Below, piece after piece: positions 7,053 through 63,874 of a DNA stretch of 64,000 nucleotides. The first letter of the stretch is position 1; the number at the start of each line of letters is the position of its first letter. The notes beneath the pieces are model-generated. The model was not told the DNA's origin. It searched no databases and saw only the letters and a list, made by a program, of their open reading frames with translations. A program made the position numbers and the translations under genes. Source of the DNA: Escherichia phage OSYSP; sequence record MF402939; one strand, given 5' to 3'.

Positions 7053-9962
7053 TTATGAGTTATCTGGCTTAATGAGCTCACTCACAAGTTTTTTCAGTTC
7101 GGTTAATTCTTGCTCAAGTTTGTTAACTTTATCAGCTTGATAACGAAATGCACAAGCTAAATCCGCCATAATTACGTTATTATCAAGAGCTAATGTATCG
7201 TCCGCTTTATCAACAACAATTTGACGGTCTACATATTCTTCACCTTCTTCATTAACACCTATAACATCTGCAAAAATATCCCCGCCAGGAATTAATTTTA
7301 CATATTCCGGGTCTATTTTTAGTAGGTCTTGGGCTATTAAACCAAATCGCTGGATGTTGCTTCCATTGTATTTAAACATTGTAGGCAGCCACTGCATAAC
7401 GCGATCATAGCTTTCTTTTCCATCTGTATAAATTATATCATGCTTTAAATCTCTGTCAGAGTTGGCGGCCTTTTGAAAAATGAAATTTCCACTTGATGAC
7501 CATGTAGTTATATCGTTTGATGCTGGCTGAAACTGGAAGTTACAGAAAAAATTGCCATCACCACGAAGCCTTAACGAGCAAAAAGGCCAAGCATTATTTC
7601 CCTGTGGGATAAGACCCCAAGTTGCACGAATTGGATAACCACCAGTTGATTGTGTACCCCATGAAAGTCCAGGCGCCCATCCACCATCATTGTTAGGAAT
7701 AATCTCGCCCCAAACAAGAGCATTACCCCAATAGTTAGGATCATCCCAGCCCATTTGTTGGGTTTTGCCAGTGTATTGGGCGGAATGAGTTCTGCCGTCA
7801 GGGTAAAACTTGTGCATATAGGCCTGTATCCCTGCTTGATACAATTCTATTCCAAAAGATTCAATGTGTGTGTCGCCTCTTCTGATTAAACCAGCGATAG
7901 CGTAATCGTCATACCAATTGTAACGACTTACACCAGTCCATGTGTTTATGGGTGGATTCATGGTTGAAAATAGTTGTGACGCATTGCGTTCATTCCCGTC
8001 TGCATAAATACCAGCCCCCGGAGCTAATGAGATTGATTTTGCTCCTGAAAAAGTACCATTTTCATTAAATTGATAATAGTGAAACAAGTTATTATGAAAC
8101 ACACCTATTGTATGTTTTCCTACGCCTACTTGAGTTTCGAAATAAGACTGAGAAGAACCAATATCCTCGCCTTGTGTGTTCTTTAATTTTGAATGGTATA
8201 TACCTGCGTTTGCAGTATTTGCATTTTCCGTTTCATTTTCAACATTAAGGCTTAGAAATTTTGGTGCATGTTTTTCGCCAAGTCCTATATTGTTTCTAAT
8301 ACCATTCGCATCCTTAGCACCCGTACCACCAAATTGAATACCTAGTGGTAGCCATTGATTGGTTGTAGCATCATAAACGCCCCAATGATCCCCACCATCT
8401 GGAATGGTTAGATACTTGTTTTTATTTGGGGAATATAAAACTGTTTCACCAGAAGTCTGAAACAGCCTATCAACTCCTAAATTATATCTAGCACCTTCAA
8501 GTGTATCCGCTCCAGTACCACCAGCAATAATTGATAATGGAAGAGATTCCCATGAGATACCATCACCATTTATGTTTTTCTGGAGTACAATAAGCCCATC
8601 ATCTCGCATAACAAATCTATATAATCTATTATGCGAGTATAAAAAAGTATGAACCCCATCCTGCACAAGTGAGTCTATAAGGAGCGTCTGACGAGAAGCA
8701 TTAATATCCGACAGATCTGAAAGATTATTTTCTTTTAGTAACGATTTACCAATAATACCTTCAGCTTTTCCAGCAGCCACTTCTGCACGTCCAGCGTCGG
8801 TAGATGCGCTTTGTGCGCTACTAGCAGCATTACTAGCTTGTTGCCCGGCCTCAACAGCACTGTTACCCGCTTGTGTAGCGGAAATAGCAGCGGCGTCTTT
8901 TAGCACGGTAGTTTCGGACACAGCGGCATCCTTAATTGCTTGCGTCTCGCTTACTGCACTATCCTTAATAGTCTGTGTGTCAGACTTTAATTTTTCAACA
9001 TCTGCTTTTAAAGCTGTTGTTTCACCTACAGCGGCATCCTTAATTGCTTGCGTCTCGCTTACTGCACTATCCTTAATAGTCTGTGTGTCAGACTTTAATT
9101 TTTCAACATCTGCTTTTAAAGCTGTTGTTTCACCTACAGCGCTATCTTTAATTAGTTGAGTATCTGATTTTAGTTGCTCAACATCTGATTTTAAGCCTTG
9201 AATAGTGGTTACTGACTGACTAGCTGAGGTTGCAGAACTAGCTGCGTTAGTCTCACTATCTTTGGCTTTAGTCTCACTAGTTTTAGCATTTGTTTCACTA
9301 GTTTTAGCATTTGTTTCAGAGGTTTTTGCAGCAGACGCTGATGTAGCAGCTTGTGTAGAGAATGTTTCCGCCTCATTCCTAAAACCACTGGAATCCGCAG
9401 CGGAAGCGGCAGCATTAGTCTCACTGATTTTTGCTTTATCTTCACTAATTTTTGCAACAGCAGCAGATGCAGCAGCATTAGTCTCACTGATTTTTGCTTT
9501 ATCTTCACTAGCCTTTGCATTAATTTCGCTAGTTTTAGCTTTATCTTCACTAGCCTTTGCATTAATTTCGCTAGTTTTAGCTTTATCTTCACTAGTCTTT
9601 GCATTAGTTTCGGATATTTTAGCTGCTGCAGCGGATTCTGCAGACTTATTGGCTGACGTTGCGGACTGAGTAGCAGAAGTAGCTGATTGGGTAGCCGATG
9701 CTTCAGAAGCTTCCGCGGAAATCGCAGCTTCCTGTTCAGAATTCTTAGCATTAAGCTCTGAAGTCTTAGCAGCTATTTCAGAATCTTTTGCAGCCGCAGC
9801 AGATTTAGCAGTGGCCTCTATAGAAGATACTAACTCATTAGCAGTAATAGAGCTAATAGAATTTCCAAGAGTTACTGTGTATCTAGGAAATTTACTAGCA
9901 GTAGCTTTAGTATCATCAATATTTAATATTTGTTGTACAATAATCTTAGTAGTTATTGCCAT
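7053..9962 (-). CDS. L-shaped tail fibre protein (pb1-like) with C-terminal intramolecular chaperone domain
   Basis: 969 aa; Ala/Ser/Thr/Lys-rich repeat region encoded by tandem DNA repeats; C-terminal segment resembles autocleaving chaperone domains of fibre proteins; first gene of late module as in T5. Confidence 0.75.
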   Translation of the reverse strand: MAITTKIIVQQILNIDDTKATASKFPRYTVTLGNSISSITANELVSSIEATAKSAAAAKDSEIAAKTSELNAKNSEQEAAISAEASEASATQSATSATQSATSANKSAESAAAAKISETNAKTSEDKAKTSEINAKASEDKAKTSEINAKASEDKAKISETNAAASAAVAKISEDKAKISETNAAASAADSSGFRNEAETFSTQAATSASAAKTSETNAKTSETNAKTSETKAKDSETNAASSATSASQSVTTIQGLKSDVEQLKSDTQLIKDSAVGETTALKADVEKLKSDTQTIKDSAVSETQAIKDAAVGETTALKADVEKLKSDTQTIKDSAVSETQAIKDAAVSETTVLKDAAAISATQAGNSAVEAGQQASNAASSAQSASTDAGRAEVAAGKAEGIIGKSLLKENNLSDLSDINASRQTLLIDSLVQDGVHTFLYSHNRLYRFVMRDDGLIVLQKNINGDGISWESLPLSIIAGGTGADTLEGARYNLGVDRLFQTSGETVLYSPNKNKYLTIPDGGDHWGVYDATTNQWLPLGIQFGGTGAKDANGIRNNIGLGEKHAPKFLSLNVENETENANTANAGIYHSKLKNTQGEDIGSSQSYFETQVGVGKHTIGVFHNNLFHYYQFNENGTFSGAKSISLAPGAGIYADGNERNASQLFSTMNPPINTWTGVSRYNWYDDYAIAGLIRRGDTHIESFGIELYQAGIQAYMHKFYPDGRTHSAQYTGKTQQMGWDDPNYWGNALVWGEIIPNNDGGWAPGLSWGTQSTGGYPIRATWGLIPQGNNAWPFCSLRLRGDGNFFCNFQFQPASNDITTWSSSGNFIFQKAANSDRDLKHDIIYTDGKESYDRVMQWLPTMFKYNGSNIQRFGLIAQDLLKIDPEYVKLIPGGDIFADVIGVNEEGEEYVDRQIVVDKADDTLALDNNVIMADLACAFRYQADKVNKLEQELTELKKLVSELIKPDNS

Positions 9963-27295: not shown

Positions 27296-28509
27296 TCTTT
27301 ATCTCCCTCGGTGGAACCTTGAGGTCTACCACCTTCTTGACCAGATACACCTGTTGCAGAACCAGCAACGTTAGCAGGAATACGAATCCTATCCATCTGC
27401 TCATCATCTAAAGGTTCCAGGTTCAGCTCTAAACGAGCTTCGTTACCAGTCATAATACCATTATTAACCAATGAGGTTAAATGTTTAGCCTCAGCTTCTT
27501 TATCTGGTGTTAATGCAGCTACCTCCTTAGTATTAGGGGTAATCTTATAACCAAAAAAGAAAGTAAGAGAACTAGTCAGTTTGTTCAGCATAGGAATGAT
27601 AGTCATATAATAGAACAATTCGATGTTTGGTCGAATATTCGCATTATTACCACCATCAAGCAGTACTTGCGGAACTCCAAAGGCTAGACAAATAGATTTA
27701 TTAAATCCTTCGATGTCTTCCTTAAAGTCTAGATCTTTAAAAGAGGATATTTGGGAGTACGGTTTAGCTTTCATACCACCATCTAGAATCAGGACAGAAG
27801 ACTGACCAGTACTAGGATTATAATCGAGTTGTAATTCTTCTTGTTTACGCTCACGCAATTTCTTGTTCAGGATTTCATCCGTCTCAAGAATAAGACCAAT
27901 CACGGTTCCATTATCTAGGAATTTCTCTTTAAAGTTAAGCATCTTGGAACGCTTCTCAAGAGAATCAATAACAGTAGCAACACGAGATTGTCCAGAAATT
28001 TGAGAATTTGTGCCGCACACGTAACTGTTATCCTTTATAAAGATAATCTCATCTACGCGATAGTCTATCTGATTATTAAATATAAATTTTTTGATAAACT
28101 TATTGGCATCTGCCTCGACCTGCATAAGAGCAGCCGGGACATGGTAAAGCGATGTGCCATCCCAATAGATGTATGCACAACCTTCAAAAAGTAGGTCAGT
28201 GACTACAAGTCTACGGAATGTGCTTATATCCATGAATGGATTAGGTCGTACATTTAAGAGAGTGTCTAGAGTCTTTGTTTTGACGCCATTAGCGTACGTA
28301 ACAATATTATATTTATCTCCGACAGTATAAGAACACTCCGCCGCACTATCTATAACCATATTGGCAGTTCGATTGAGAATCTCAATCTTGCTATAGGCTT
28401 GTCCAGTGGTAAAAGGCTTACGGTTAGTGCGATGACTAACTGGTTCCATGTCTCTTATAATACGTTGACCCGGATTTAACTTTTCAGTAATCCAGCTTTT
28501 TAAACCCAT
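27292..28509 (-). CDS. Portal protein (T5 pb7-like)
   Basis: 405 aa; position between terminase and protease. Confidence 0.8.
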   Translation of the reverse strand: MGLKSWITEKLNPGQRIIRDMEPVSHRTNRKPFTTGQAYSKIEILNRTANMVIDSAAECSYTVGDKYNIVTYANGVKTKTLDTLLNVRPNPFMDISTFRRLVVTDLLFEGCAYIYWDGTSLYHVPAALMQVEADANKFIKKFIFNNQIDYRVDEIIFIKDNSYVCGTNSQISGQSRVATVIDSLEKRSKMLNFKEKFLDNGTVIGLILETDEILNKKLRERKQEELQLDYNPSTGQSSVLILDGGMKAKPYSQISSFKDLDFKEDIEGFNKSICLAFGVPQVLLDGGNNANIRPNIELFYYMTIIPMLNKLTSSLTFFFGYKITPNTKEVAALTPDKEAEAKHLTSLVNNGIMTGNEARLELNLEPLDDEQMDRIRIPANVAGSATGVSGQEGGRPQGSTEGDKE

Positions 28510-29033
28510 TATAAGAACCTTGCGAATCCTGATTTTATTTCAGTCTTGACTTGTGTCTTTTCTTGAGGATTCTGTAATTTGTCTTTCTGCTTTTGAACCC
28601 ATGCTTTCTGTTTATTAGCAGAAAATAATGGAGGTTCTTTCGTGTAAACCTTATGTAATAGTTGGTGATGGTGTACACAAAGGGTAACAGTGTCTTCTAC
28701 TAGCTCATGCCTATATCGATCATAGAATGCCGTCCTATTTGAAAGGACTGTTTCTTCGTCAGTGAAATCCAATTGGAGTTCTTTAGCAAATTTTTTAACT
28801 AGTAGAGACACCGTATGGTAATGATGAAGCTCTAATTCTTCAGCACAACCGCAGATAGCACATTGAGAGTCTTTTTTATATTGACTTTTTATTCCGTCTC
28901 TCATAAGGGATATAGCATCGCGTTTATATTTTATATTGCTTGCCATAGTGTTCTCCTCAACTGTATGAATATAGTATACATAATCGTATCGAATTTGTAA
29001 AGGGGATTTTAAAATACAGGAATGGGATACCAA
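28509..29033 (-). CDS. HNH-type endonuclease (true start probably MASNIKY near 28946)
   Basis: CAICGC...ELHHYH...LCVHHHQLLH His/Cys motifs typical of HNH; lies between portal and large terminase. Confidence 0.55.
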   Translation of the reverse strand: MVSHSCILKSPLQIRYDYVYYIHTVEENTMASNIKYKRDAISLMRDGIKSQYKKDSQCAICGCAEELELHHYHTVSLLVKKFAKELQLDFTDEETVLSNRTAFYDRYRHELVEDTVTLCVHHHQLLHKVYTKEPPLFSANKQKAWVQKQKDKLQNPQEKTQVKTEIKSGFARFL

Positions 29034-29060: not shown

Positions 29061-30377
29061 TTATTTACCACGGGAAATAGAGTAAATTCCATAGCGGAGC
29101 GCATCACAAAGGTGAGAGTTAGCATCATGACGTGGTTTTTCACGTGATAATTTCTCTTCACCTTCTTGGAAGTCCCACTTATAGTTCTGCAATGCATGAA
29201 TTAGGGAGGAACATGAGGCATCTACAATAATCTTGCCCTGCTGAAATAACGCTTGCAAACATGCTAGGCCATCTAGAACAGATTTTTTAGCTGGAGCTGA
29301 TGCAATTTCATGCTCATAAGCTAAGTCCTGGCGGAACTGAGCAGCGGCAGAGTCAACAAAAATACGATCAACTTTATAACGATCTATACAGTGCTGAATA
29401 TAAGCAGCATGCTGAGCTGTAGTTTTCTCCACCTGCTGGTACTCTTCTAATACATAGTAAGTATCCGTATCGTAATGATATTTAATAGTAAGAACTGCTG
29501 TAGGATCACGATAACCAACGTCAATACCAAGCAACGTTTCGAATGCTTCATCATCTTTAAAGAAGTGGCGCATACCTTTGAGGTCTTTAACATGATCGAT
29601 AGCATTAAAAGTATCAAAGATCTGGCCTTCAAATACAGAGAAGTCAGCCTCGTATTCCTGGCGGAAGTAGTTTTTACTAACTGTACGACGTGCTTCCTCA
29701 ATGTCATTCAAATCAGCACGTGGGTTATCACGATATGTACCATGAATAGATACCCAGTTAGGCAACGTATCATCAAATCCGTAGGCGTAAAACTCTTTAA
29801 ACCAGTTACCCCCACGAGGGGTGGAAATAAATAGAGCCTTAGAATTAGGTTTATCTAGAGTAGGACGCAGCTGAACCCTGAAGGCATCACCACCCACATC
29901 GGAAATTGCCGCCTCGTCAAAGATGATAAAATCATATGAACGTCCAACTGCGGAGTCAGCCTGAGCCGCGGAAGCTAGTTTAAATAGGGAACCATTTGCC
30001 AGTTCAATCTCTTTATCTTTAGCGTTTTCACGTTCGGTTTGTAGGCCGTACTTCTTAATAAGACCACGAATCTGAGACCACCCGATATTGGCCAGTGAGT
30101 AGTTAGGGGCAACTACTAGTACCTTCACATTAGGTTCCAGCAATTTTAGGAACCCAAGAGTATATGCGATGAAGGATTTACCTACACGGCGTGATACACA
30201 CGCCGTTACAAAACGATGTCTAGGGTCCTCTAGAGCATTAATAATCGCTATTTGAGGGCCATTAGGTGTAATACCCTCTTGTGCTAGTATTCCCGAAACA
30301 GGTAGACGGAAGAAACGTTTGTCTATTCCGAAATCAATAACATCTACTGTGTTAACGTAGGGTCTTGATACTTCCAT
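29061..30377 (-). CDS. Terminase large subunit
   Basis: 438 aa; Walker A-like RRVGKSF, Walker B-like DFIIFDEAA, C-terminal nuclease-like region. Confidence 0.85.
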   Translation of the reverse strand: MEVSRPYVNTVDVIDFGIDKRFFRLPVSGILAQEGITPNGPQIAIINALEDPRHRFVTACVSRRVGKSFIAYTLGFLKLLEPNVKVLVVAPNYSLANIGWSQIRGLIKKYGLQTERENAKDKEIELANGSLFKLASAAQADSAVGRSYDFIIFDEAAISDVGGDAFRVQLRPTLDKPNSKALFISTPRGGNWFKEFYAYGFDDTLPNWVSIHGTYRDNPRADLNDIEEARRTVSKNYFRQEYEADFSVFEGQIFDTFNAIDHVKDLKGMRHFFKDDEAFETLLGIDVGYRDPTAVLTIKYHYDTDTYYVLEEYQQVEKTTAQHAAYIQHCIDRYKVDRIFVDSAAAQFRQDLAYEHEIASAPAKKSVLDGLACLQALFQQGKIIVDASCSSLIHALQNYKWDFQEGEEKLSREKPRHDANSHLCDALRYGIYSISRGK

Positions 30378-30859
30378 TACTTCTTACCTCCAGTAGCTAG
30401 GGAAGTAATTAAGTCCATGTAGTTTTGATCCCCAGCTCCAGCAATAATATTATTCTGGATGTTGGTCTGATTGGCTGGAGTACGGGCTGCTGCCTTCACT
30501 TTCTCCAGTTCTACCATCATTTTCATTTCTTCCATCTTCATCTTGTGTGCCTTCCAGAGAATGTTCATAATATCCTGGTCAGAACCCATGCCGGTTTCTT
30601 CTAGTTCCTCCAGCTTACGCTTGATAACTTCATCCAGAACACCAAATAAACGATCCCTATTACGGAAACCACTCTCCATAAAAATATCATTTAAGTAGTT
30701 CTTAACTTCACTACGATTCATAATATCTCGGAAAGCAATTTCTGACATTCCAAGACTACGTGCGGCAGAAGGCACATCGCTGCCACACTGTAAATAAGCT
30801 TCAATCACATCCATCCCCTCAGGGGACATAAGATCTGGTACTAATACATCATTTGCCAT
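30377..30859 (-). CDS. Terminase small subunit (putative)
   Basis: 160 aa directly upstream of TerL; N-terminal HTH-like [15 protein letters not shown]; Met/Glu-rich coiled coil. Confidence 0.6.
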
Positions 30860-30869: not shown

Positions 30870-32657
30870 TTAGGTAAGGCGTTGAACTGTTACTCTTAAT
30901 CTCGGTAGGAAAATAGCTGCAGCCTCATCAGCGTGAATAATTACGCCCAATTCAGCATTACCATTTCCTAGATTTTTAATAGTATAAATATATCCGTTTC
31001 TTCTAAATGTTAACTCATCAGGTCTACTTGCCCAAGTTTGAGTATAGCTGTATGCAGTAGTGGAGTGATAAGGGACTAAGTATCCAGGAGGTAAGGTTAA
31101 TATTTGATGGAATATTCCATCACCTTCCGTGTAACTATGCTGTCTTCTTCCTTGTACTTGCCAAGCAACACCACCATATGTGCGTATAGCTCCTCCTGCG
31201 GTATTAATATTCCCCATGATAACTTCAGTAGTTAATATTACTGTTGCGTTAGCGTTAGGCAATCCTAATCCTATGGTGGCCAAAGCTCTATAGTAGTTAC
31301 CTGCTCCAGGATATGTTGGAGTTATATCATCGCCAACGTAAGTGCTAGCAACATTATTAGGAAATAGTCTTAAGGGTACAGTACTAGGACTCCACACAGC
31401 TCCATGCTCATTACCTATAGTGTTATTACTTGAGTTTACGTACCATTGCTTACCCGCTCCGAATTTGTAAATACTAATTTGAGACTTAGCCCCTCCATAA
31501 TCTACGGGAGACCATAAAGATCCATTACTAGATCCTACAATTTCACAGCGCGCAGTAGTATCCCCGAAGGCTCCAGTGTACGCTGCGTTATTTCCAATGT
31601 ACTCCATATCTGGCCTATAGCCTAAGTTACCAAAAGCATTTTGGTTGATAAACTTATATCCAGTATTTGGTAAACTAACCCCTTTTATAGTAAAATTAGA
31701 TGGAGTTATAAGTATATCTGACCCAGTAAATGGATTACCGGATACGCCCATATTACCATTAGAGTACCTTAGATTAAGTACATACCAAATAACTTTGGTA
31801 GGTGTAATATTATAACCATCCTGCACATATACTTTCTTAGCGGCCTGTGCTGCTAGATTAGATGTTGAACCTTTACATATATAAACCTTATCAGGGTAAG
31901 TAGGAGATTGGTACAATAAGTTAACATTATCGGGTACTGTGCCTTTTTTACCTACGTAACTTCGTATATTAGAGTTACAAACGTAAAAACAATTATGCCC
32001 TCTATGGGCGGCCCCTATAGGAGCTTGCCAGTTAGGATGCCAGTAGTCAGCATTACCACCGTCTATAGGTACTGTAGACGCTCCCGCTGGAAATCCTGCT
32101 AAAGTCCATGCCCTACCTATAGCCTCACCAGCATATGCTCCTCCCGGCCTATATAAATTAAACCCGGAGGCTTGAGATATAGTACCTCCTGTACCTTGCC
32201 TAGCAATTGATTCTTCATGGCCTAAACCAGAGTTATAAATATAGGTGCCATGTGCTAAACTATTACCTGATGCAAAAGCTGACGTAAGACCTACTTCTGC
32301 ACCTGCCCTACCAATAGGCGGATCTTCAAAAAATGTAGTAAATTGACCAACTTGAGATTGAGTACCATTAAGAAAAGCCCTATGAGTACCATTAATCTCA
32401 ATAGCAGTTAGTATAACTCTACCTGGGTCATTGGATTTAATATTTATTATGTCAGAAGGCATCTGACATACAAAAAACCCATTTCCGGCATTACCTAGCC
32501 CAGCCTCGTAAGTACCATCAACTAGGACAAATGGCATATCACTATGAAAAATACTATTGGCATTTGGACTATAGTGACGATTAATGTCACCCCCAGATTC
32601 AGTATTTAAAGATAGTACGGTCTTACCATCGCTATACTTTCCAGCGAAAAAACCCAT
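30870..32657 (-). CDS. Receptor-binding tail protein (T5 pb5-like)
   Basis: 595 aa; Gly/Asn/Tyr-rich; divergent from and adjacent to a lipoprotein gene exactly as the T5 oad-llp pair. Confidence 0.7.
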
Positions 32658-32682
32658 ATAATCTCCTATTATAAAAATGTAT

Positions 32683-32711
32683 TTGCTTTTATCCCTCTAT
32701 TTTGCTATAAT
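32683..32711 (+). promoter_or_regulatory. Strong early promoter for llp (TTGCTT, 17 bp spacer, TATAAT, then AGACTCATAAATTAGA)
   Basis: Hexamers and start region read directly; strong resemblance to T5 PN25 architecture as remembered. Confidence 0.65.
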
Positions 32712-32742
32712 AGACTCATAAATTAGAAATGGAGAGATAAAT

Positions 32743-33009
32743 ATGAAAAAGTTTGTGATTGCACTAGTTGCCGCAGTTATGTTGTCTGGTTGTGCACCTG
32801 CCCCCAAACCATTTTGTACGGGATTTGTAAAATCTTTTGGCGGTGCGGGAGAGGAGCATTACGGCCTCAAGGTTCAAAAAGTTCGTATTAAGGGAGATCG
32901 CTTTCCAGTAGTACAGCTCCGTACTAAGTTTGGGTGGTGGGATCTCAGTCAGTTTGACCTTAAATACGGTGATTGTAAATTTAAACTAGAGCAATCTAAC
33001 TACCTGTAA
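32743..33009 (+). CDS. llp: Lytic-conversion lipoprotein Llp-like (receptor-blocking, superinfection exclusion)
   Basis: Signal peptide plus lipobox LSGC; 88 aa; divergent neighbour of the receptor-binding protein gene. Confidence 0.75.
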   Translation: MKKFVIALVAAVMLSGCAPAPKPFCTGFVKSFGGAGEEHYGLKVQKVRIKGDRFPVVQLRTKFGWWDLSQFDLKYGDCKFKLEQSNYL

Positions 33010-33122: not shown

Positions 33123-33314
33123 ATGGTTGGTTATGCACAAACTATAAAATATTTTAAATACCACACTTATAGGAGCATGAAAGATATGTCAAACAAAAGA
33201 AAGAGTAGGCGCGGAGAAGTGTACGATAGTTGGATTAATAGTTTTGGATTCGGAACTATCCTATTCTTTATTTTCGTAGGTTTTTGGTTAGCAGCTATGG
33301 CGGGGTGGATTTAA
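33123..33314 (+). CDS. Small membrane protein (63 aa)
   Basis: C-terminal hydrophobic helix ILFFIFVGFWLAAMAGWI; AGGAAG RBS; first gene of a four-gene overlapping operon. Confidence 0.5.
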   Translation: MVGYAQTIKYFKYHTYRSMKDMSNKRKSRRGEVYDSWINSFGFGTILFFIFVGFWLAAMAGWI

Positions 33315-33421
33315 TGGAATGGGTAATTATTGCGTTGCTAGGGATTGTGATTATTGGGCAATGTATTTTAGATAATCACTTAGCTAGAATTGAAACTTTA
33401 CTAACGGAGAAACGTAAATGA
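33314..33421 (+). CDS. Small membrane protein (35 aa)
   Basis: ATG overlaps previous stop (TAATG); hydrophobic N-terminus WVIIALLGIVIIG; not in the ORF track because under 60 aa. Confidence 0.4.
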   Translation: MEWVIIALLGIVIIGQCILDNHLARIETLLTEKRK

Positions 33422-33612
33422 TGGAAGTAGTAGCTACACTAATAGTAATACTAGTCTGGGCAACTTTCATTGTTTCTTATAACGCGTATGTTCGCCTAAA
33501 AACTCTAGAGGCCCAGGTAAAGCAGCAACAATTTGCACTAGAAAAATTAGTAGAGCTTCAACGCTGTGATAGTACCCGTATTCTGCAAATTGAGAGGGAA
33601 TTAGATGTTTAG
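33418..33612 (+). CDS. Small membrane protein (64 aa)
   Basis: ATG overlaps previous stop (ATGA); N-terminal TM helix followed by coiled-coil segment. Confidence 0.5.
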   Translation: MMEVVATLIVILVWATFIVSYNAYVRLKTLEAQVKQQQFALEKLVELQRCDSTRILQIERELDV

Positions 33613-33850
33613 TATTATAATTGCTTTTATTATCGGGATACTCACGGGAGTTTTCGGAATGACTGCGGCAATCAACAAGCATCGTAAATATATTGCGGAA
33701 GTATCGCGGGAGATTGCGGAAAGGGAGCGGAAGTTTGATGAGAAACGTGCGGAGTTCGAACGAGAGTGGTCGGACGGTTCTCGGGCGTCGCGGAAGAGAT
33801 TCCGTGAGTTCAGACCAGAATACAGGTTTGATGACCCTTCTATGCGCTAA
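33605..33850 (+). CDS. Small membrane protein with charged C-terminal tail (81 aa)
   Basis: GAGAGGG RBS; N-terminal TM helix IIIAFIIGILTGVFGM; Arg/Glu-rich C-terminus. Confidence 0.5.
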   Translation: MFSIIIAFIIGILTGVFGMTAAINKHRKYIAEVSREIAERERKFDEKRAEFEREWSDGSRASRKRFREFRPEYRFDDPSMR

Positions 33851-50202: not shown

Positions 50203-50262
50203 TAATTTATGAACTTATTATACGGAATTTTAAGGCTTAAAGCAACTGAATTTTTTAATTAC

Positions 50263-50694
50263 TTACCAATCGTTAACAACGCCGGAGAACTCAGAAGCAA
50301 AAACTTTTTCAAATTTCTCTGCAATTTCAGGATGATCTTTGCAGATCAGCTCAATACAGGCTTCTGGAGCCATTCCTTCATCTTCAGGATCACCATAGTA
50401 TTTATCCCAAAGATCATCAGGAATGATATGCTCCGCCAAATCTTGGAAAGATATTAACTGATAACGTTCTGCTTCCTCGGGGATAAGGATTTCACAAAGA
50501 TCTTTATCTATATCGCTACGATAATCCGCAATTAATAAGGCATTGCAAGCATGACATTCCCAGACCATCAAACGTTCAGAGATAGGATTAGACTTATCCT
50601 GAACGTAAGACTGGAACAAGGTTCGGAAAGTTGCCTTAACTTGTTCAAACTTATCTGCTGCTGCGAAAACTAGAGCTTTATCAACTTTGTTCAT
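50263..50694 (-). CDS. Hypothetical early protein (143 aa), acidic
   Basis: ORF in early array. Confidence 0.45.
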   Translation of the reverse strand: MNKVDKALVFAAADKFEQVKATFRTLFQSYVQDKSNPISERLMVWECHACNALLIADYRSDIDKDLCEILIPEEAERYQLISFQDLAEHIIPDDLWDKYYGDPEDEGMAPEACIELICKDHPEIAEKFEKVFASEFSGVVNDW

Positions 50695-50861
50695 TTTGAT
50701 TCCTTCTCATCAATTTATAAAGTAATTATACAGAAACTTAAGCATTTTAGCAAATAAAACTTTCAATTAAAATGCCTAATCCTGTGCCAATAGCAATACA
50801 AATGATTATAAGTATTGCTATCGCCTGTATGATTCGTTTAATAATAACCTCAGCTATATAC

Positions 50862-51455
50862 TTAGACATTTATATCGCCACGCAATACAGCAGCTACGTC
50901 TTCTCCTATTTGTAATACCTCGCCGGTAGTACAATTAACCACTCTATCGTAACTAGTAAACTTACCAGACACAATATCCTCTAGTGGAATTGGAGTTCTA
51001 CTCATTTCAAATGAGACATTAATATAACGTGGATCACGTAAAGAAGTAGTATGTACATGTCCGTGAATATTTAGTTTGCCACGAAGTTCATTAGGGTGCA
51101 AAGGGCAGTGAGATAGCCAAAACTTTTTGCCACCTCCAGTCTGTTTGCCTAGAGCTTGAATATCGTCATAAACTTCCGCTAAGTCCCTAATACTCAGTCC
51201 TTGACGCTCCGCATCATGATTACCCATAATGAGTTGATTAGGGACATTGTGGATAACCGACTTTAATTTGGCCAGACCTTCACGACCTACTGCAATATCT
51301 CCTAGCAAAATAAGTTTTGTTCGTTTACCAATATGCTTGGATAAAGTATTTAGAATATACTCATCGTGCTCTTTCATGTTCTTAAACCACGGACGGAAAC
51401 GTAGTGCTCCAGGGTGGTCTAAGTGCAAGTCTGACCAGAATTTAACCTTCATCAC
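50862..51455 (-). CDS. Calcineurin-like metallophosphoesterase
   Basis: Motifs SDLHLD, GDIAVGREG, GNHD, GHVH. Confidence 0.65.
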   Translation of the reverse strand: MMKVKFWSDLHLDHPGALRFRPWFKNMKEHDEYILNTLSKHIGKRTKLILLGDIAVGREGLAKLKSVIHNVPNQLIMGNHDAERQGLSIRDLAEVYDDIQALGKQTGGGKKFWLSHCPLHPNELRGKLNIHGHVHTTSLRDPRYINVSFEMSRTPIPLEDIVSGKFTSYDRVVNCTTGEVLQIGEDVAAVLRGDINV

Positions 51456-51739
51456 TTACTCCTTTTTTGTATTAAATTATCAATCCAGGTAGTTAATACT
51501 CTAGTTTTAAACTCCTCGGGAGTCTCTCCTTCCTTAAGGTCTACCTCATTAAGGTAGGTAGTAAGCCTTGTTTCTATCTCTATTTCAGCAGGAGAATTAA
51601 AACAAAAATTGACTGCTATTCCAGAATATATTACTCCGGTATCTCCTTTGACGAAAGCATTAACTAATGCTCTCCAACGAAGGGCATCAATACGCATTGC
51701 TCGTAATTCTTCTTGTACTTCTTTCATTCTATCATTCAT
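51452..51739 (-). CDS. Hypothetical early protein (95 aa)
   Basis: ATGA overlap with the downstream gene. Confidence 0.45.
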   Translation of the reverse strand: MNDRMKEVQEELRAMRIDALRWRALVNAFVKGDTGVIYSGIAVNFCFNSPAEIEIETRLTTYLNEVDLKEGETPEEFKTRVLTTWIDNLIQKRSK

Positions 51740-52614
51740 TAAAGAATCCTCTGTACACCACAGCTATCTTCTCGAAGCGTGGTAAATGTTGTGATTTTCC
51801 CAGTTTCATCATTAACTTGCGCAACCGTCAACTGCCCGTTGAAAACACCGCCAGTATCAAGATAAACACGGTTCTGGTATAAAATCGGGTAAGGAACCCC
51901 AGTGTGTCCGTGGAACACAAAGTCTATCCCTTTAACTTCGGGCACTTCTACCATGTATTTTTCTTTAAATCCTGCATAACGCTGGAAATACGGATGTTCC
52001 TCACCGTTTTTGGACAAGTATAAACCTATTTCTTGGATTACATCTCGATCCCATAAGTATGGCTCAACATGGTATCCAGGATGGTCATGTGGGTCTTCCT
52101 TAGCTGCTTCTACTTGTGCAATAAGGCTATCCCATACTGGGGTTTCTACTTCGTTACCGCAGTCTTTGTATGTAAAAGGTACACCACCATGAACAACACC
52201 AAACTTCTTACCACGATGTCTAACAGTTAGGAATACTGGCATTTTTTCAGCCATATCTTCGGCAATATTTTTAATGGTGTCTGCATCTAGTTCATTCATG
52301 GCCCACATACCACCATTATACATCCAATTAGCCCAATCTCCAACAATCATAAATTGATCATGATTACCACGGACACTGATAAAACGTGGATTATATAGGA
52401 ATTTGGCTAAAACTTGTAAATTTTGTGTGCCTCGGTCAATTAAGTCACCAACACATACTACACAATCTTTTTTGCTATTATATCCAGCTAATTTCAGCGC
52501 ATCTTCTAGCAAATCGTTGCATCCATGAATATCCCCAACGAAAAACAAGTTGGCCTCATCCGGCACTACTATTGTTTTATGCACATTAAATTCTTTTTTC
52601 ATAATTATTCCCAA
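51739..52614 (-). CDS. Ser/Thr protein phosphatase-like metallophosphoesterase
   Basis: Motifs GDIHGC, GDLIDRG, GNHD, HGG, GH arranged as in PPP-family phosphatases. Confidence 0.7.
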   Translation of the reverse strand: MGIIMKKEFNVHKTIVVPDEANLFFVGDIHGCNDLLEDALKLAGYNSKKDCVVCVGDLIDRGTQNLQVLAKFLYNPRFISVRGNHDQFMIVGDWANWMYNGGMWAMNELDADTIKNIAEDMAEKMPVFLTVRHRGKKFGVVHGGVPFTYKDCGNEVETPVWDSLIAQVEAAKEDPHDHPGYHVEPYLWDRDVIQEIGLYLSKNGEEHPYFQRYAGFKEKYMVEVPEVKGIDFVFHGHTGVPYPILYQNRVYLDTGGVFNGQLTVAQVNDETGKITTFTTLREDSCGVQRIL

Positions 52615-52850
52615 ATAACAGTTAAAATAGTTGTGCCATACTCATTAGATAATTGGAGAGTATAACCCTCTTTATTGAGGGCTTTTATAGCTTCATAACT
52701 AATTTCGTCACGATTAAGCTGTACAAAAGAACCTCCAATCTCTACAGAAGATACTATCCTCCGCTTAACCCATCTATACGTTTTCTTTCGGCTCTTAAGG
52801 GACGCGGCTCTATTTATCCTAGCTAAACGTTTTGCTTGCTCTGCTAACAT
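52605..52850 (-). CDS. Hypothetical early protein (81 aa)
   Basis: ORF in early array. Confidence 0.4.
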   Translation of the reverse strand: MLAEQAKRLARINRAASLKSRKKTYRWVKRRIVSSVEIGGSFVQLNRDEISYEAIKALNKEGYTLQLSNEYGTTILTVIWE

Positions 52851-52908
52851 TTAATCCTCCTATCAATCTATACAAATATTATACCAAAATTTTTAGCAAA
52901 AAGCAAGT

Positions 52909-52946
52909 AAAATAAAAGCCTGATCAGCTAAGATCAGGCTTTGTTT
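52909..52946. terminator. Bidirectional rho-independent terminator
   Basis: AGCCTGATC-loop-GATCAGGCT with A-run upstream and T-run downstream. Confidence 0.6.
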
Positions 52947-52947
52947 A

Positions 52948-53238
52948 TTAGTCTTCTGGATTATCATCCAGGAAATTTTTAATAGCTTCGTGCATAGTTT
53001 CTTTACGAAGCTGACGTCCAATCAAAATATGGTTAGCTTCTACTCGACCATTAGGTAAGCGATCTGCCAGAACTACTACAGGAACTTGGCGCACACCAAA
53101 TTTCTGCATTAATTCTGTATTATCAGTCTCTTTGTGGACTTCCAAATTATAGTCATTGACTACTTTATCAAATACTGGCTCAAACATTTTGCAAGGATTG
53201 CAAGTGGAACCTTTCAATAGATATACTAACTTACTCAT
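52948..53238 (-). CDS. Thioredoxin/glutaredoxin-fold protein
   Basis: 96 aa with CNPC (CxxC) motif near N-terminus and cis-Pro-like VPVV downstream. Confidence 0.6.
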   Translation of the reverse strand: MSKLVYLLKGSTCNPCKMFEPVFDKVVNDYNLEVHKETDNTELMQKFGVRQVPVVVLADRLPNGRVEANHILIGRQLRKETMHEAIKNFLDDNPED

Positions 53239-53662
53239 AGTTATTAATGGCCTCTAAGAAGTTTTTCATAGTTTTTACGGTTGCGGTGCTCAGATCAAGA
53301 TTTACACCCAAACACTCGGTTAATGCTTCCTGATAAGGAGCCTTTAATCTGCCTTCTGGGACTTCTACCTTCTTATATTCTTTATTTTTGACCTTTTTAA
53401 TCATAGTCTCTAGTACAAGAAGCGGTAATTTAACACCTTCAATATCAGTACCCAAAAGTTCAGTTAAAATTTTATTAAGATCAAGACGAGTTAACTTTTT
53501 GCCCTTAGACATAGATGCACCTACCTTTGTATCAATAGATTTTTCCGCTTTCTTTTCGAGCTTTTTGTACTCAGGAGAGTCATGATCACGGAGTGCAATG
53601 TTTAGCTCGTAATGTGGTATACGAAAATGTTCCGCCATTTGAGTATAGAAACGATCAGACAT
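53231..53662 (-). CDS. Hypothetical early protein (143 aa)
   Basis: ORF in early array. Confidence 0.45.
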   Translation of the reverse strand: MSDRFYTQMAEHFRIPHYELNIALRDHDSPEYKKLEKKAEKSIDTKVGASMSKGKKLTRLDLNKILTELLGTDIEGVKLPLLVLETMIKKVKNKEYKKVEVPEGRLKAPYQEALTECLGVNLDLSTATVKTMKNFLEAINNYE

Positions 53663-53737
53663 AATATATACCTCTCTTAACTAATTTATGTATATATTAT
53701 ATAATAACTAGGGCTAAAAGTCAACTACTTTTTTATC

Positions 53738-54154
53738 TTAATCTACTGCATGGATAAATCTTTTCCTAACTAGATACATAGTTATTGGGTAAATTGAGTA
53801 CATAAGTATCGGGGAGAAAAGGGTGAAATATGCTGTAACTCCCCCAGCTAACATCAAAGGTATTAATGCTAGAGTAAGGGCCATAAGAATCATGCCGAAT
53901 GAAACAGCCAAAGCTATGGATATAGGATTCTCTAGTTCCATCCATAACCAACAATATTTCGTATCTCTATGGCAATTGCATTTACAAACGCCGAATGAAC
54001 CCATAATTATATACTCTAGTCCGTGAATAACCTTTATTAATAAGCTATTTCGGGTAGTTAATGCAAGGATAGTAAAGACTATCATTAAAACGAATACTAC
54101 TAGACTTATTTTCCAGATACCTAGCAGCATCATAGTGAATAGTTCTGCAAACAT
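53738..54154 (-). CDS. Integral membrane protein (138 aa)
   Basis: Four hydrophobic helices. Confidence 0.5.
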   Translation of the reverse strand: MFAELFTMMLLGIWKISLVVFVLMIVFTILALTTRNSLLIKVIHGLEYIIMGSFGVCKCNCHRDTKYCWLWMELENPISIALAVSFGMILMALTLALIPLMLAGGVTAYFTLFSPILMYSIYPITMYLVRKRFIHAVD

Positions 54155-54195
54155 GGCTTTCTCCTATCTTCAAAAATTATTAAAGCCCCCTTTGC

Positions 54196-54220
54196 CTAAA
54201 AAGGCGGGAATATTCCCGCC
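54196..54220 (-). terminator. Rho-independent terminator after endolysin gene
   Basis: GGCGGGAAT-ATTCCCGCC hairpin followed on the - strand by TTTTTT. Confidence 0.6.
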
Positions 54221-54231
54221 TCAGTTATTAA

Positions 54232-54645
54232 TTAAACTAGTTCGACATGACCGCCATCATAGGTACCACGTTTTATTTCATCGTGATAATCTCCCGAAGC
54301 ATTCCAATCAGCACCAAAGCGAAGTTTAATGCCTAGTTCTTTACCCGCTTGTTCAAAAGCCTTTTTAACTGCCCAAAATGCTTCTAAATCATTCCAATCA
54401 ATTTTGCCATTAATGTATGGAGCAAAATCAAGGGCATCCCCAGTAATATGCTTGCTTTTACTAGGATCTTTTAAAAATGAAGTACCATTAGCAATATTCT
54501 GGGCACTTTGTGCTACTGTACGAATACCCTGTACGATCGTGAAATCATAAGGAGATAGTTCTAAAGCCCTACGAGCTACTTTTTGTAGTTCGGGCTTAAC
54601 GGTAGCTAATTGTTTTTCACTATTTTTACCAAATTTAAAACTCAT
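54232..54645 (-). CDS. Endolysin, L-alanyl-D-glutamate peptidase type
   Basis: 137 aa as for T5 endolysin; zinc-peptidase-like H...D...H residues (HITGDALDF, HVE); directly downstream of holin. Confidence 0.75.
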   Translation of the reverse strand: MSFKFGKNSEKQLATVKPELQKVARRALELSPYDFTIVQGIRTVAQSAQNIANGTSFLKDPSKSKHITGDALDFAPYINGKIDWNDLEAFWAVKKAFEQAGKELGIKLRFGADWNASGDYHDEIKRGTYDGGHVELV

Positions 54646-55325
54646 ATTGATCTACCTAAAGATCTCTGTTGTGGAGAACAGAGCTTTGCTAAATATTCCT
54701 TGAACTGTTCAGAATCAGCTGTATCTACCGGATTATCTTTCCAAGCAATACCAATGTACCCAGCATAGATATTTTTTAGATTGAAGTATGGACAAGTGTA
54801 TATGTAATTAAAAGTAACGTTTTTAAACGCAGGTATATTTAACCCCATATATTTATTTACTCTTACACTTAAATCCGATGCGTAGTTAAAGCCCTCTAAA
54901 TGACGTCTGTATAATTCAGACGTTTTATTTACCGCTTTATCGGCCAAGTCAGCCCTATCTAATTGCGCATTACTTTCCCATGCAATAATATTGGAATAAT
55001 CATTGATAGCATCTGGTTTATACTTGACTACAAAAACAGCATCTGCACCCGTCTGAGAGAAGAGAACCATGCTCTTTTCCCCCGCCACATTAGGGAAGTT
55101 ATCTATCCTCTGGGTTTGTAAATCCTGTAAAACTGCAGACGTGGAAAAGGTTTTTAAGAATGACATCACTTCACTAGTATTACTAACAAATAAGAAAATA
55201 ATGACAGCAACTAAGATAGTTAGCAGACGTTTAAGAAGCGATGCTGGGTCTTTCGCTTCTTGGAGCAGTACTGTTAATAATTGTAAGAACTTTTCCAATT
55301 TGTAACCTCCTCTAACCAGTACCAT
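54642..55325 (-). CDS. Holin (putative)
   Basis: 227 aa with one strong TM helix LLTILVAVIIFLFV; ATGA overlap with the endolysin gene. Confidence 0.6.
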   Translation of the reverse strand: MVLVRGGYKLEKFLQLLTVLLQEAKDPASLLKRLLTILVAVIIFLFVSNTSEVMSFLKTFSTSAVLQDLQTQRIDNFPNVAGEKSMVLFSQTGADAVFVVKYKPDAINDYSNIIAWESNAQLDRADLADKAVNKTSELYRRHLEGFNYASDLSVRVNKYMGLNIPAFKNVTFNYIYTCPYFNLKNIYAGYIGIAWKDNPVDTADSEQFKEYLAKLCSPQQRSLGRSI

Positions 55326-55555
55326 TATACTAATTTTGGAGGAAAATTACAATGTGTTTTTAAAGATCACTTCTGGAGCATAAAATTTTGTCGTTGTCAA
55401 GAAGAATTTTAGATAAAAGAAAAGCCAGGGTCGTTAAACCCTGGCTTAAAATTACTTACTCTTCGTTGTGCTCCTCGGATTGAGGTAACTGGGCTTTATT
55501 ATATTGCTCAGATCGATATTTTGCCAAGATTTCAATACGCTTATGGATTTCTTTG

Positions 55556-56056
55556 CTATCTAGATAGATATTTTTTGTTGTCTTTTACCATTTCGTCGAT
55601 TTCGTCTATAGAGAAGAACGGATAGTAGACATCTAGCATCATATCTTCTACGAACTTGTTGTAAGATTCATAGGCTTTCTTGATTTCTTGACCCTTCTCA
55701 CAGAATCCGCCAGAGAACGTGTGTCCCATTAGCGTAGCATGTGGATGTACTACCCATCCATGACAGGATAGGAAAATTGTGCAGTAAGCAGAAGCACTAG
55801 GACCGAGCAGGTGTCCAATAACCGTTCCACGACAGTTAGCGATTAAGTTAGATAGTTGTGCAGCAGTATCAACGTAACCACCAGGCCCATTAATCATCAG
55901 ATTAATTTCATCATCTTCACCAGCCTGCATCAGTATCATGGATAGGTCACGATACTCATCCGGTGAGCCTAATTCTTCATCAAAGAAAAAGGTATATTCG
56001 TTAGATTGGCGAACAGTGTGAAACAGGTTAGTCTTTTCTTCTTTCTTATTAGTCAT
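55556..56056 (-). CDS. ClpP-like serine protease (S14 family-like)
   Basis: INGPGG (cf. ClpP INSPGG), GPSASAY (catalytic Ser context), VVHPH (His context). Confidence 0.6.
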   Translation of the reverse strand: MTNKKEEKTNLFHTVRQSNEYTFFFDEELGSPDEYRDLSMILMQAGEDDEINLMINGPGGYVDTAAQLSNLIANCRGTVIGHLLGPSASAYCTIFLSCHGWVVHPHATLMGHTFSGGFCEKGQEIKKAYESYNKFVEDMMLDVYYPFFSIDEIDEMVKDNKKYLSR

Positions 56057-56068
56057 AGTGATCCTTAA

Positions 56069-56821
56069 TTATCCAACTAGTGGTTCTAGCTCTAAGTCAC
56101 AGAAGTGGTACACATCGGTACGAAGTGCATCAAGTCCGTTGAAGGTATTCTCAAATTTATGAGAAATGTATTTTTCAGGAATACCGCTTTCAGACGGATG
56201 ATCTGTCTCGATGCGATACTTATTAGTAATACCAGATTCAACCTTAATAAGCATGGAATCCATATCTAGAGTATTGGTTTCCATGATTAGCTCTCCCTCA
56301 TTGGGGAAACGCACATCGGTAACGATTGCGACGTCTGGGTCGTCTTTATCGATGGATTGCTCCAGAATTATGAGCCAAATGCGTTCATGCACCAGCTGCC
56401 TTCCTAACTCAGTACCTACAAGCTGTAGCATTTTTCTTGGGGAGATAAACACGCTATACAGCGCATCATCAGCTTGCCCAATTAACTGCTGAGGATCAAG
56501 GTATTTTCCTTCAAAAATCGGCCAAACGTACGAGAAGTCCTCAAACTTATCGATACCATACTTAAACCATACGTCTCTAGCTCGCTCCAATTGAGATTGT
56601 GTGACCGTAAACCATTGGTCAATCTCTTTTCCCCTGCGCTCTCCCAGAAACTCTGGAGTTACCCCGAGGATTACGGATGCAAGTTCGTAAACGGGTTTAG
56701 CAAAACTGTAACGACGGGATAAACACGTTGGGAACGTGTCATTACACCAGTCAATCATTAATTCTGCAACGGTATCTTTTCCCGCACCAGCCTCACCATG
56801 TAAACCGACTAATACTGACAT
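56069..56821 (-). CDS. Deoxynucleoside monophosphate kinase
   Basis: 250 aa; P-loop GLHGEAGAGKDT at N-terminus; same size as T5 dNMP kinase. Confidence 0.7.
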   Translation of the reverse strand: MSVLVGLHGEAGAGKDTVAELMIDWCNDTFPTCLSRRYSFAKPVYELASVILGVTPEFLGERRGKEIDQWFTVTQSQLERARDVWFKYGIDKFEDFSYVWPIFEGKYLDPQQLIGQADDALYSVFISPRKMLQLVGTELGRQLVHERIWLIILEQSIDKDDPDVAIVTDVRFPNEGELIMETNTLDMDSMLIKVESGITNKYRIETDHPSESGIPEKYISHKFENTFNGLDALRTDVYHFCDLELEPLVG

Positions 56822-57174
56822 TAATCTTTCCTATTTGTAATGGGTGGATAGTAAACTAAGCAACGTTTTTCTTGTAAATCTTGACGATAGAAGCAAACCA
56901 TACCAGTCAGTCGTGAAATGTAAGAGTAAACTGCTTCCTCGCATTTTGCTTTTGCATTCCAATCTTTGTAAGGTACAACAACTACTACGCCATCTTCGCC
57001 ATTTGTAGCTAATTTCTTTTCGAATTTGAAATCAAAGCTACACGGCTGAAGTCCTTTAGGCCAGTCAACATGGGCTTGCTTTAACTCATGTGAAGGCTCT
57101 GGTTTTATTTCTTCTGCACAGCCTGTGATTGTGATTGCGGCTGCGAGCAGTACTCCAAGTTTCCAGTTAAACAT
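56821..57174 (-). CDS. Outer-membrane lipoprotein, candidate o-spanin
   Basis: Signal peptide with lipobox ITGC; 117 aa; 5' end overlaps a TM/coiled-coil protein gene. Confidence 0.5.
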   Translation of the reverse strand: MFNWKLGVLLAAAITITGCAEEIKPEPSHELKQAHVDWPKGLQPCSFDFKFEKKLATNGEDGVVVVVPYKDWNAKAKCEEAVYSYISRLTGMVCFYRQDLQEKRCLVYYPPITNRKD

Positions 57175-57548
57175 GCTAATCTTTCCTCGAACTCCTTACT
57201 CTGCTTTTTAGCAATTAATGTAACCAATCCAGGCTTTGCAGCTATAATGTCTTGACGACTAAGTGCTTTATCAAGCTGACTAATTTTCTTGTCTAGATCT
57301 GCTTGGGAAACATTATTCATTGTGAAATACTGATTCATACGAGTTTCACGAAGTTCACTCTCAGCTTTCACATTATTAAGGGAAGTCTCTAGGGACGTAA
57401 TCTTTTTAGTAGCTACTGCAAGATCACCTGCTAGAGTCTCAACCTTATTTACTAAGTGATAAGCACCGAATCCGATACCTATCGCAAGACCAGCTCCCAG
57501 GATATACATCTTATTATCCCAAACTAAGTCTACAAACCATTTCCACAT
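57105..57548 (-). CDS. TM plus coiled-coil protein, candidate i-spanin
   Basis: N-terminal TM helix YILGAGLAIGIGFGAY then long coiled coil. Confidence 0.5.
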   Translation of the reverse strand: MWKWFVDLVWDNKMYILGAGLAIGIGFGAYHLVNKVETLAGDLAVATKKITSLETSLNNVKAESELRETRMNQYFTMNNVSQADLDKKISQLDKALSRQDIIAAKPGLVTLIAKKQSKEFEERLACLTGNLEYCSQPQSQSQAVQKK

Positions 57549-58045
57549 CAGCCTGTACTCGCAAACTCACCGTGGAGTTCTTTGAGTTTGGTATCTCGCC
57601 ATTCTATGGCCTCTTCCAAACTCTTAAGTGTTTTCGAAACTTGCTTACCATGTTTAGTGATTCTTACTTGGTAAGTCCCATTTGTTTTTCTATGAATATT
57701 TTTAACGCCTAAATGGTTATCGCTTCTTACTTTTTGATTACAAGCGTTATCAGATCTTGTAGCAGGTCTTAGATTCTCAAACCTATCATTAGTTGAGTCT
57801 TTATCCTTATGATCAACTATTTCTGGCCATTCTCCAGTATGCCATGCATAGATTAATCTATGTGTACCTATAGCTAGAGAACCATTATATAGCTCAACTA
57901 CTCTATGTCCTGTACTTTGTCTAGATCCTGCTACTGTTCCGGCGAATATCTTATTAAAGTGTTCGTCCCCTTCCCTGGGTTTCCAGATAAGATTACCATC
58001 ATCTCGGTAATCGAACATTCTTCTTAGCTCTTCCTTACTGATCAT
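57548..58045 (-). CDS. HNH homing endonuclease with AP2-like DNA-binding domain
   Basis: HRLIYAWHTGEWPEIVDHKD...NLRPATRSDN (HNH core) followed by NGTYQVRITKHGKQV (AP2-like). Confidence 0.65.
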   Translation of the reverse strand: MISKEELRRMFDYRDDGNLIWKPREGDEHFNKIFAGTVAGSRQSTGHRVVELYNGSLAIGTHRLIYAWHTGEWPEIVDHKDKDSTNDRFENLRPATRSDNACNQKVRSDNHLGVKNIHRKTNGTYQVRITKHGKQVSKTLKSLEEAIEWRDTKLKELHGEFASTG

Positions 58046-59275: not shown

Positions 59276-59349
59276 TTACCGCACTAAGGGGCACGACTCC
59301 CTTATCCGTAACAGTTGCAGGTGACGCAACTCGGTCCTACGCGAGTTCT

Positions 59350-61404: not shown

Positions 61405-61411
61405 TTATTAA

Positions 61412-63867: not shown

Positions 63868-63874
63868 GATTATT

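Follow-up and report, generated by a model that had tools for sequence, protein, structure and literature searches.

The region studied here occupies positions 30870-33009 of a 64,000-nucleotide stretch of Escherichia phage OSYSP DNA (sequence record MF402939), which we call the window, and it consists of two divergent genes with a short regulatory spacer between them. On the minus strand, the gene for a receptor-binding tail-tip protein (RBP) of 595 aa extends over 30870-32657; the ORF list, a match to phrog_4815 and matches to pb5 chains assign it to the pb5/Hrs family, with the SPC35/BF23 BtuB-type allele as its probable class. On the plus strand, the gene llp (32743-33009) encodes an 88-aa precursor of a putative receptor-blocking (superinfection-exclusion) lipoprotein, as indicated by the ORF list, a match to phrog_1119 and 100% identity with the corresponding BF23 protein. 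The divergent spacer between the two start codons comprises 85 bp (32658-32742) and is 98.8% identical with that of BF23 and 97.6% with that of SPC35. Within this spacer, a Shine-Dalgarno sequence GGAG (32731-32734, plus strand) lies 8 nt 5' of the llp ATG, and an AGGAG (32663-32667, minus strand) is found 5 nt upstream of the RBP ATG.

The RBP gene is the leading gene of a leftward late unit, RBP-terS-terL. Downstream of it on the minus strand are terS at 30377-30859 (phrog_3802) and, beyond that, terL at 29061-30377, which carries the Pfam domains Terminase_6N and 6C, while 3' of llp there are four small conserved membrane ORFs followed by a pre-early dmp-like gene. The annotated BF23 and T5 records have the identical order of terL, terS, oad, divergent llp, four small ORFs and the start of the terminal repeat, and each of them also annotates divergent promoters in the RBP/llp spacer. 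An earlier note on this DNA had described a 595-aa tail protein and an 88-aa lipoprotein with the lipobox LSGC, arranged like the T5 oad/llp pair. Its coordinates, sizes and lipobox were all correct, and the proposed arrangement agrees with T5 and BF23, where terL, terS and the RBP gene likewise stand on one side and llp, the four small membrane ORFs and the terminal repeat on the other. At the DNA level, megablast showed that the window is about 90-92% identical over 24 kb to Tequintavirus-like phages of Salmonella and E. coli. Near-identical versions of the 2.1-kb region occur in dozens of deposited phages, and 107 records cover 80% of it or more.

The RBP matched phrog_4815, annotated as “receptor binding tail protein”, over residues 1-595 with an E value of 8e-280, and the solved T5 pb5 chains 8b14_B and 8a8c_B were matched with an E value of 6e-47. 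Both this full-length homology and the terS/terL neighbours place the protein in the pb5/Hrs tail-tip family (phrog_4815). Relatives were found by tblastn in 536 of 50,697 phage records, and RBPs at least 99% identical to that of the window are carried by five records. RBPs of phages with a reported receptor were then extracted and aligned, including the H8 protein, which we located in the unannotated H8 record and which is 99.5% identical to the Shivani protein. Compared with phages reported to use BtuB, the window RBP showed identities of 59-99%, namely 98.8% with SPC35 (7 of 595 residues differ), 83% with BF23 Hrs, 81% with S132, 67% with DT571/2 and 59% with phiR2-01. The identity was 31% (range 30-31%) with T5 pb5, whose reported receptor is FhuA, and 33% with the RBP of H8, whose reported receptor is FepA (28-33% for H8 and Shivani). 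The likeness to the T5 and H8 proteins lies mostly in the N-terminal ~60 residues, a region common to the three receptor types. In a neighbour-joining tree with 500 bootstraps, the window and SPC35 RBPs were grouped at 100%, and all BtuB-type RBPs were split from T5, H8 and Shivani, also at 100%. A length of 595 aa is normal for this protein in BF23 and SPC35, compared with 640 aa for T5 pb5 and 637 aa for H8 and Shivani.

These comparisons bear directly on which receptor is recognised. The RBP could be regarded as a shortened T5-type FhuA binder whose partner lipoprotein blocks FhuA, given that it is homologous to pb5 and that phrog_1119, which takes its name from the FhuA-blocking Cor, includes both Llp proteins. 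Against this stand the low identity to pb5, concentrated at the N-terminus, and the fully supported split from T5; moreover, the window Llp equals that of BF23, and a one-residue variant of the latter gives no protection against T5 (PMC4728585). We regard an FhuA-directed pair as extremely improbable. The FepA-specific type of phages H8 and S124 has two points in its favour, since the initial ~60 residues of the RBP are 72-85% identical to the H8 protein and a close DNA relative bears the name vB_SenS_S124, which is confusable with that of the FepA phage S124. The overall identity to H8 and Shivani is nevertheless low, their RBPs are 637 aa long and form a separate clade at 100% support, vB_SenS_S124 (OK108607) and Salmonella phage S124 (NC_048013, named in PMC12980165) are distinct records, and the gene adjoining the Shivani RBP gene has an unrelated product of 108 aa (phrog_16810). 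A FepA-specific pair has, in our estimate, hardly any chance of being correct, and both the FhuA and the FepA types were rejected for the window RBP on identity and tree position.

According to the literature, RBPs of this kind fall into three clusters from which the receptor, BtuB, FepA or FhuA, can be predicted, and most Markadamsvirinae target BtuB (PMC8594841). BtuB users include EPS7, SPC35, DT57C, DT571/2, BF23 and phiR2-01 (PMC8624392, with the SPC35 result known via later citing papers), and BF23 Hrs is a BtuB binder (PMC10644984). Judged by its sequence relationships, the window RBP almost certainly binds the vitamin B12 transporter BtuB. The suggestion of the earlier note that the receptor may not be FhuA is borne out by the 31% identity to pb5 and the bootstrap split, and the alignment of RBPs that it had proposed as a check gave no tight clustering with the T5 FhuA-binding type. 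Its description of the RBP as divergent holds relative to T5 and fails relative to SPC35 (98.8%) and BF23 Hrs (83%). Its view that the identity of the receptor was unresolved has to be revised, as homology points to BtuB and the Llp sequence is that of the BtuB-blocking Llp of BF23.

The 88-aa Llp begins with MKKFVIALVAAVMLSGC, a lipoprotein signal peptide (residues 1-16) with the lipobox L-S-G-C at residues 14-17, and it matched the Pfam family LPAM_1 with 23.9 bits against a cut-off of 20. The codon of Cys17, the residue predicted to be lipidated, is at 32791-32793. The mature protein would comprise 72 aa, with Ala at position +2 and two further cysteines, Cys25 and Cys78; C17, C25 and C78 are invariant across 12 Llp homologues. 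Under the established +2 rule, Ala at this position predicts sorting to the outer membrane. The protein matched phrog_1119 with an E value of 1.8e-26, and tblastn and alignment showed that it shares all 88 residues with the “receptor blocking protein” of BF23 and is one residue away from the proteins of SPC35 and DT571/2. Epseptimavirus phages such as EPS7 and S132 carry a second Llp allele group, at about 68% identity.

What this protein does can be read from its close relatives. Without induction, the llp of DT57C, one substitution away from that of BF23, cut plating by more than 100-fold for BF23 and DT57C and had no effect on T5, and resistant mutants had an inactivated btuB (PMC4728585). 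Protection by the BF23 Llp itself, directed at BtuB-dependent phages and not at T5, is credited to Mondigler 2006 in the citation given by PMC4728585. To the extent that sequence identity can tell, the window Llp is a BtuB-blocking Llp. The earlier note had predicted a self-contained recognition-plus-exclusion pair in which Llp blocks the same receptor, and such a matched module is what the literature describes (PMC4728585, PMC8624392).

The spacer contains a motif that would serve as the llp promoter (32683-32711, plus strand), identified by motif counts and alignment. It consists of a -35 element TTGCTT (32683-32688), a 17-nt spacer, an extended -10 TG (32703-32704) and a -10 hexamer TATAAT (32706-32711), flanked by an A-rich AAAAAT upstream and ATAAATT downstream, with a putative transcription start near 32718. 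A generic sigma-70 scan did not list this promoter, since TTGCTT shares just 3 of 6 bases with TTGACA, and a phage-specific motif search and cross-phage alignment were used in its place. The pattern TTGCT-N17-19-TATAAT occurs in 8 copies in the window against 0.4 expected, and the -10 element with its downstream box, TATAATAGACTCATAAATT, recurs 7 times in the window at no more than 3 mismatches, against 0.06 expected. When the spacers of seven phages (the window, BF23, SPC35, DT571/2, S132, phiR2-01 and T5) were aligned, AAAAAT, TTGCTT and ATAAATT were invariant, as were most positions of the -10 hexamer. These blocks are kept even in T5, whose flanking genes are not alignable at the DNA level. 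The -35 element, 17-bp spacer, -10 element, flanking boxes and recurrence all conform to the T5-type early-promoter pattern, which presumably resembles that of strong T5 early promoters such as PN25. Thus llp has its own T5-type early-promoter motif, which would be active and fire early. Early expression of T5 llp is attributed to Decker 1994 in the citation given by PMC8624392. The promoter had been called near-canonical, which fits the -10 and extended -10 elements and does not fit the -35 element, with its three matches to TTGACA.

To see how the two genes have evolved, we counted codon differences from the nearest relatives. The RBP gene differs from that of SPC35 by 64 synonymous and 7 non-synonymous codons, and llp differs from that of BF23 by 7 synonymous and 0 non-synonymous codons; by these counts, both genes are under purifying selection. 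The seven RBP substitutions, from the window to SPC35, are T108A, C223W, S233G, D243A, T448A, R457T and V497T. The DNA identity to BF23 varies along the region, being 75-81% in the RBP gene, 92% in terS, 98.8% in the spacer, 97.4% in llp and 93-96% in the downstream ORFs. Since the RBP gene is 75-81% identical to BF23 and its flanks 92-99%, RBP alleles have been exchanged with breakpoints at the gene ends, and the same RBP allele exchange has been described for DT57C (PMC4728585).

Such mosaicism raises the question of whether the 7 substitutions relative to SPC35, or the 17% divergence from BF23, might shift specificity while BtuB is still bound; such a shift might take the form of favouring BtuB loops from certain Salmonella or E. 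coli lineages, of an escape from btuB point mutants, or of the use of a second receptor. The RBP alleles of this clade diverge much faster than their flanks, and a difference in BtuB loop EL-7 has been linked to phiR2-01 sensitivity (PMC8624392). On the other hand, the ratio of 64 synonymous to 7 non-synonymous differences indicates conservation and not adaptive change, RBPs at least 99% identical recur in the five records mentioned above, and BtuB remains the receptor of much more divergent alleles such as that of DT571/2 (67%), which the same Llp continues to exclude (PMC4728585). A shift in specificity is very improbable in our judgement. There is also a slight chance that a few RBP substitutions alter the range of usable BtuB variants or add another outer-membrane protein while the invariant Llp still blocks BtuB; if true, this would uncouple recognition from exclusion within the module.

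How Llp would block BtuB can be approached through the T5 protein. In T5, lipidated Llp sits on the periplasmic face and binds a non-native conformation of the FhuA plug, and it causes loops EL7 and EL8 to fold in across the pb5 site (PMC9586334). The T5 Llp contains a Cys11-Cys58 disulphide, and its mechanism has been argued to extend to TonB-dependent transporters generally (PMC9586334). The window Llp and the T5 Llp each matched phrog_1119 over the full length (71.6 and 93.3 bits, respectively) and have a common topology of a lipobox, one cysteine soon after it and another near the C-terminus; in the mature window protein, Cys9 and Cys62 are the counterparts of T5 Llp Cys11 and Cys58. A pairwise BLASTP comparison of the two proteins gave 30% identity over 67 residues with an E value of 1e-4. 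When the Llp alignment was compared with T5 Llp by hhalign, residues 1-29 only were covered, that is, the signal peptide, lipobox and mature start.

For structural comparison, an AlphaFold (AF2) model of the window Llp was obtained with a pLDDT of 83, from a shallow alignment in which the homologue search gave 11 close clusters. Searching this model against the PDB with Foldseek returned no match at E <= 0.001, T5 Llp included, and phmmer of Llp against PDB sequences retrieved no T5 Llp chain at E values up to 10, the hits being chance matches only, such as an ovomucoid and a cellulase module. A search of BFVD with the model found the phiR2-01 Llp and, weakly, the CEC_Kaz_2018 exclusion protein, from a T1-like phage (E 2e-3, TM 0.48). 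The Foldseek negative is weak evidence, because free Llp, as modelled by AlphaFold, is reported to depart from its bound form (PMC9586334).

Given the common phrog_1119 matches, the cysteine topology and the Ala at +2, we infer that the window Llp would follow the logic of T5 Llp on FhuA and act from the periplasmic side, jamming the BtuB plug and folding the extracellular loops inward. Llp might instead block BtuB without periplasmic plug-jamming, for example through surface occlusion or hindered insertion of BtuB. The missing fold-level match to the solved T5 Llp and the restriction of the hhalign alignment to the N-terminal 29 residues are points in favour of this, and BF23-type and T5 Llp have been called non-homologous (PMC4728585, PMC10644984). 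The full-length matches of both proteins to one family and their shared lipobox and cysteine topology speak for the T5-like route, as does the fact that both targets are TonB-dependent transporters, for which the mechanism has been argued to be general; the difference between free and bound Llp further weakens the negative fold result (PMC9586334). We consider another route unlikely, though worth keeping in mind.

Taken together, we propose that this region serves a T5-like (Markadamsvirinae) phage as its module for host recognition and lytic conversion, in the BtuB-specific allele, a reading to which we give a probability of roughly 93%. The RBP, a homologue of T5 pb5, BF23 Hrs and the SPC35 RBP, would be made late, take its place at the tip of the straight central fibre, and bind BtuB irreversibly, which would trigger DNA ejection. 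Llp would be transcribed early from its own T5-type promoter, exported and lipidated, with signal peptidase II cleaving it before Cys17. Its Ala at +2 would send it to the outer membrane's inner leaflet, where its binding to BtuB would make the transporter unusable for the RBP. This action would exclude superinfecting BtuB-dependent phages and guard the progeny against inactivation on debris. What this analysis itself established is the gene structure, the homology to characterised proteins (near-identity for the RBP, identity for Llp), a conserved promoter motif and purifying selection on both genes, and the BtuB dependence of SPC35, BF23, EPS7, DT57C, DT571/2, S132 and phiR2-01 is from the literature.

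In practical terms, BtuB can be entered in the annotation as the receptor of this phage, and loss of btuB is the expected route to resistance. Cross-exclusion is expected with BF23, SPC35, EPS7 and DT57C-type phages and not with T5 or H8, and both assignments are useful in the design of phage cocktails. The BF23-type Llp family could also serve to test whether periplasmic plug-jamming extends from FhuA to BtuB; the structural route by which a BF23-type Llp inactivates BtuB is a question for the whole family and not for the window alone.

The module itself is already known, being an ordinary BF23/SPC35-type pair for BtuB recognition and exclusion. Descriptions of it, of its modular exchange and of its role in exclusion reportedly go back to 1996-2006, with repeated confirmation since. 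Among known systems, the Cor-type exclusion lipoproteins of T1-like and lambdoid phages are alike in being small lipoproteins whose genes adjoin RBP genes. The characterised Cor proteins block FhuA. They are only distantly related to the window Llp, for which the matches among T1-like phage proteins carrying a Cor or superinfection exclusion annotation were weak (28-36% identity, E values of 3e-4 and above), and the RefSeq label “Cor superinfection exclusion protein” for the llp gene family is a PHROG-derived name and no evidence of FhuA specificity. T5 oad (pb5)/llp is a closer counterpart, sharing the genome position, the divergent layout, the promoter core and homologous RBPs, and it is the module with solved structures (8b14, 8a8c) and an FhuA-Llp crystal structure (PMC9586334). 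It differs in the low RBP identity, in the RBP length (640 aa in T5 against 595 aa here), in the receptor (FhuA against BtuB) and in its Llp, which is about 26-30% identical and has a precursor of 77 aa, compared with 88 aa here.

The closest likeness is to BF23 and SPC35. In BF23 hrs (oad)/llp (OR083247), the Llp protein is identical, the spacer with its promoter is 98.8% identical, the RBPs are equal in length, and synteny continues up to the terminal repeat; the difference lies in the RBP allele, which comes from another sub-lineage (83% protein identity). This BF23 pair is said to be the founding BtuB-type module, from the work of Mondigler et al. in 1996 and 2006. The Salmonella/Escherichia phage SPC35, with the RBP SPC35_0143 and the receptor-blocking protein SPC35_0144 (HQ406778), has the same protein lengths (595 and 88 aa), the same divergent layout and the same 85-bp spacer. 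Over the module it is about 96% identical at the DNA level, with RBPs that are 98.8% identical, and it differs by the 7 RBP substitutions and by one in Llp (V44I). Since the flanks of the SPC35 module are about 92% identical, the window phage is a different isolate from SPC35.

When the receptor-binding region was aligned with BF23 (OR083247), the phage with the founding BtuB-type module, DNA identity was only 75-81% in the gene for the receptor-binding tail-tip protein (RBP), versus 92-99% in terS, the spacer (32658-32742), the divergent lipoprotein gene llp (32743-33009) and the ORFs downstream of it, which indicates an allele replacement limited to the RBP gene (30870-32657). Sequence comparison further showed that Llp is near-invariant among phages whose RBP alleles are as little as 67% identical.

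The RefSeq name for a lipoprotein of the window's type is "Cor superinfection exclusion protein", taken from PHROGs, and this name on a BtuB-type lipoprotein could mislead toward FhuA specificity. Several records with the BtuB-type module are filed as Klebsiella, Campylobacter or Listeria phages. vB_SenS_S124 (OK108607) was considered as the FepA phage S124 and rejected: the latter has a separate record (NC_048013), and OK108607 carries the BtuB-type module found here.

For the FepA-type module, the loci of Shivani (sequence L004, 752-1078) and H8 (sequence L010, 44702-46612) were considered. The Shivani gene divergent from the RBP gene encodes a 108-aa protein belonging to phrog_16810 and not to phrog_1119, the profile matched by the Llp of both T5 and BF23; judged by profile membership, the putative exclusion protein of the FepA module is thus unrelated to that of T5 and BF23. 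An HNH endonuclease gene comes next after the 108-aa gene.

Alignment with BF23 placed the terminal-repeat boundary near 33.9 kb, about 880 bp past llp, and the remainder of the window (33890-64000) holds the pre-early dmp and A1 region, followed by early genes and tRNA genes, those for Met, Ile, Thr and Gln lying at 62458-63950. No long direct repeat that could be a second copy of it was present anywhere in the 64-kb window; therefore, the source sequence seems to be a circularly joined assembly in which the ~10-kb terminal repeat is collapsed into one copy. The sole long direct repeat found in the window was at 8897-9112, where a unit of 108 nt is duplicated in tandem and the copies share 92% identity. 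A motif search for TTGCT-N17-19-TATAAT returned eight copies in the window, noted at 951-980 and within 50217-63266; six of them are minus-strand copies located at 50-63 kb and, on the motif evidence, mark the putative early transcription region.

Between the portal-like gene and terL, a minus-strand ORF (28509-29033) encodes a 174-aa protein with CxxC and HHH motifs, which matched phrog_3497 (function unknown, E = 4e-69), weakly an HNH endonuclease PHROG (E = 9.5e-6) and no Pfam family. This ORF could represent an insert of the homing-endonuclease-like kind. In T5 the position is occupied by another gene, T5.154 (277 aa). Four small overlapping plus-strand ORFs 3' of llp (33123-33850) matched PHROGs 8596, 6369, 5851 and 6447, all conserved, the last labeled "membrane protein". 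Their positional counterparts in T5 are the single-transmembrane proteins T5.159-T5.162. The BF23 record annotates an extra promoter ahead of these small ORFs, marked "absent in T5 phage".
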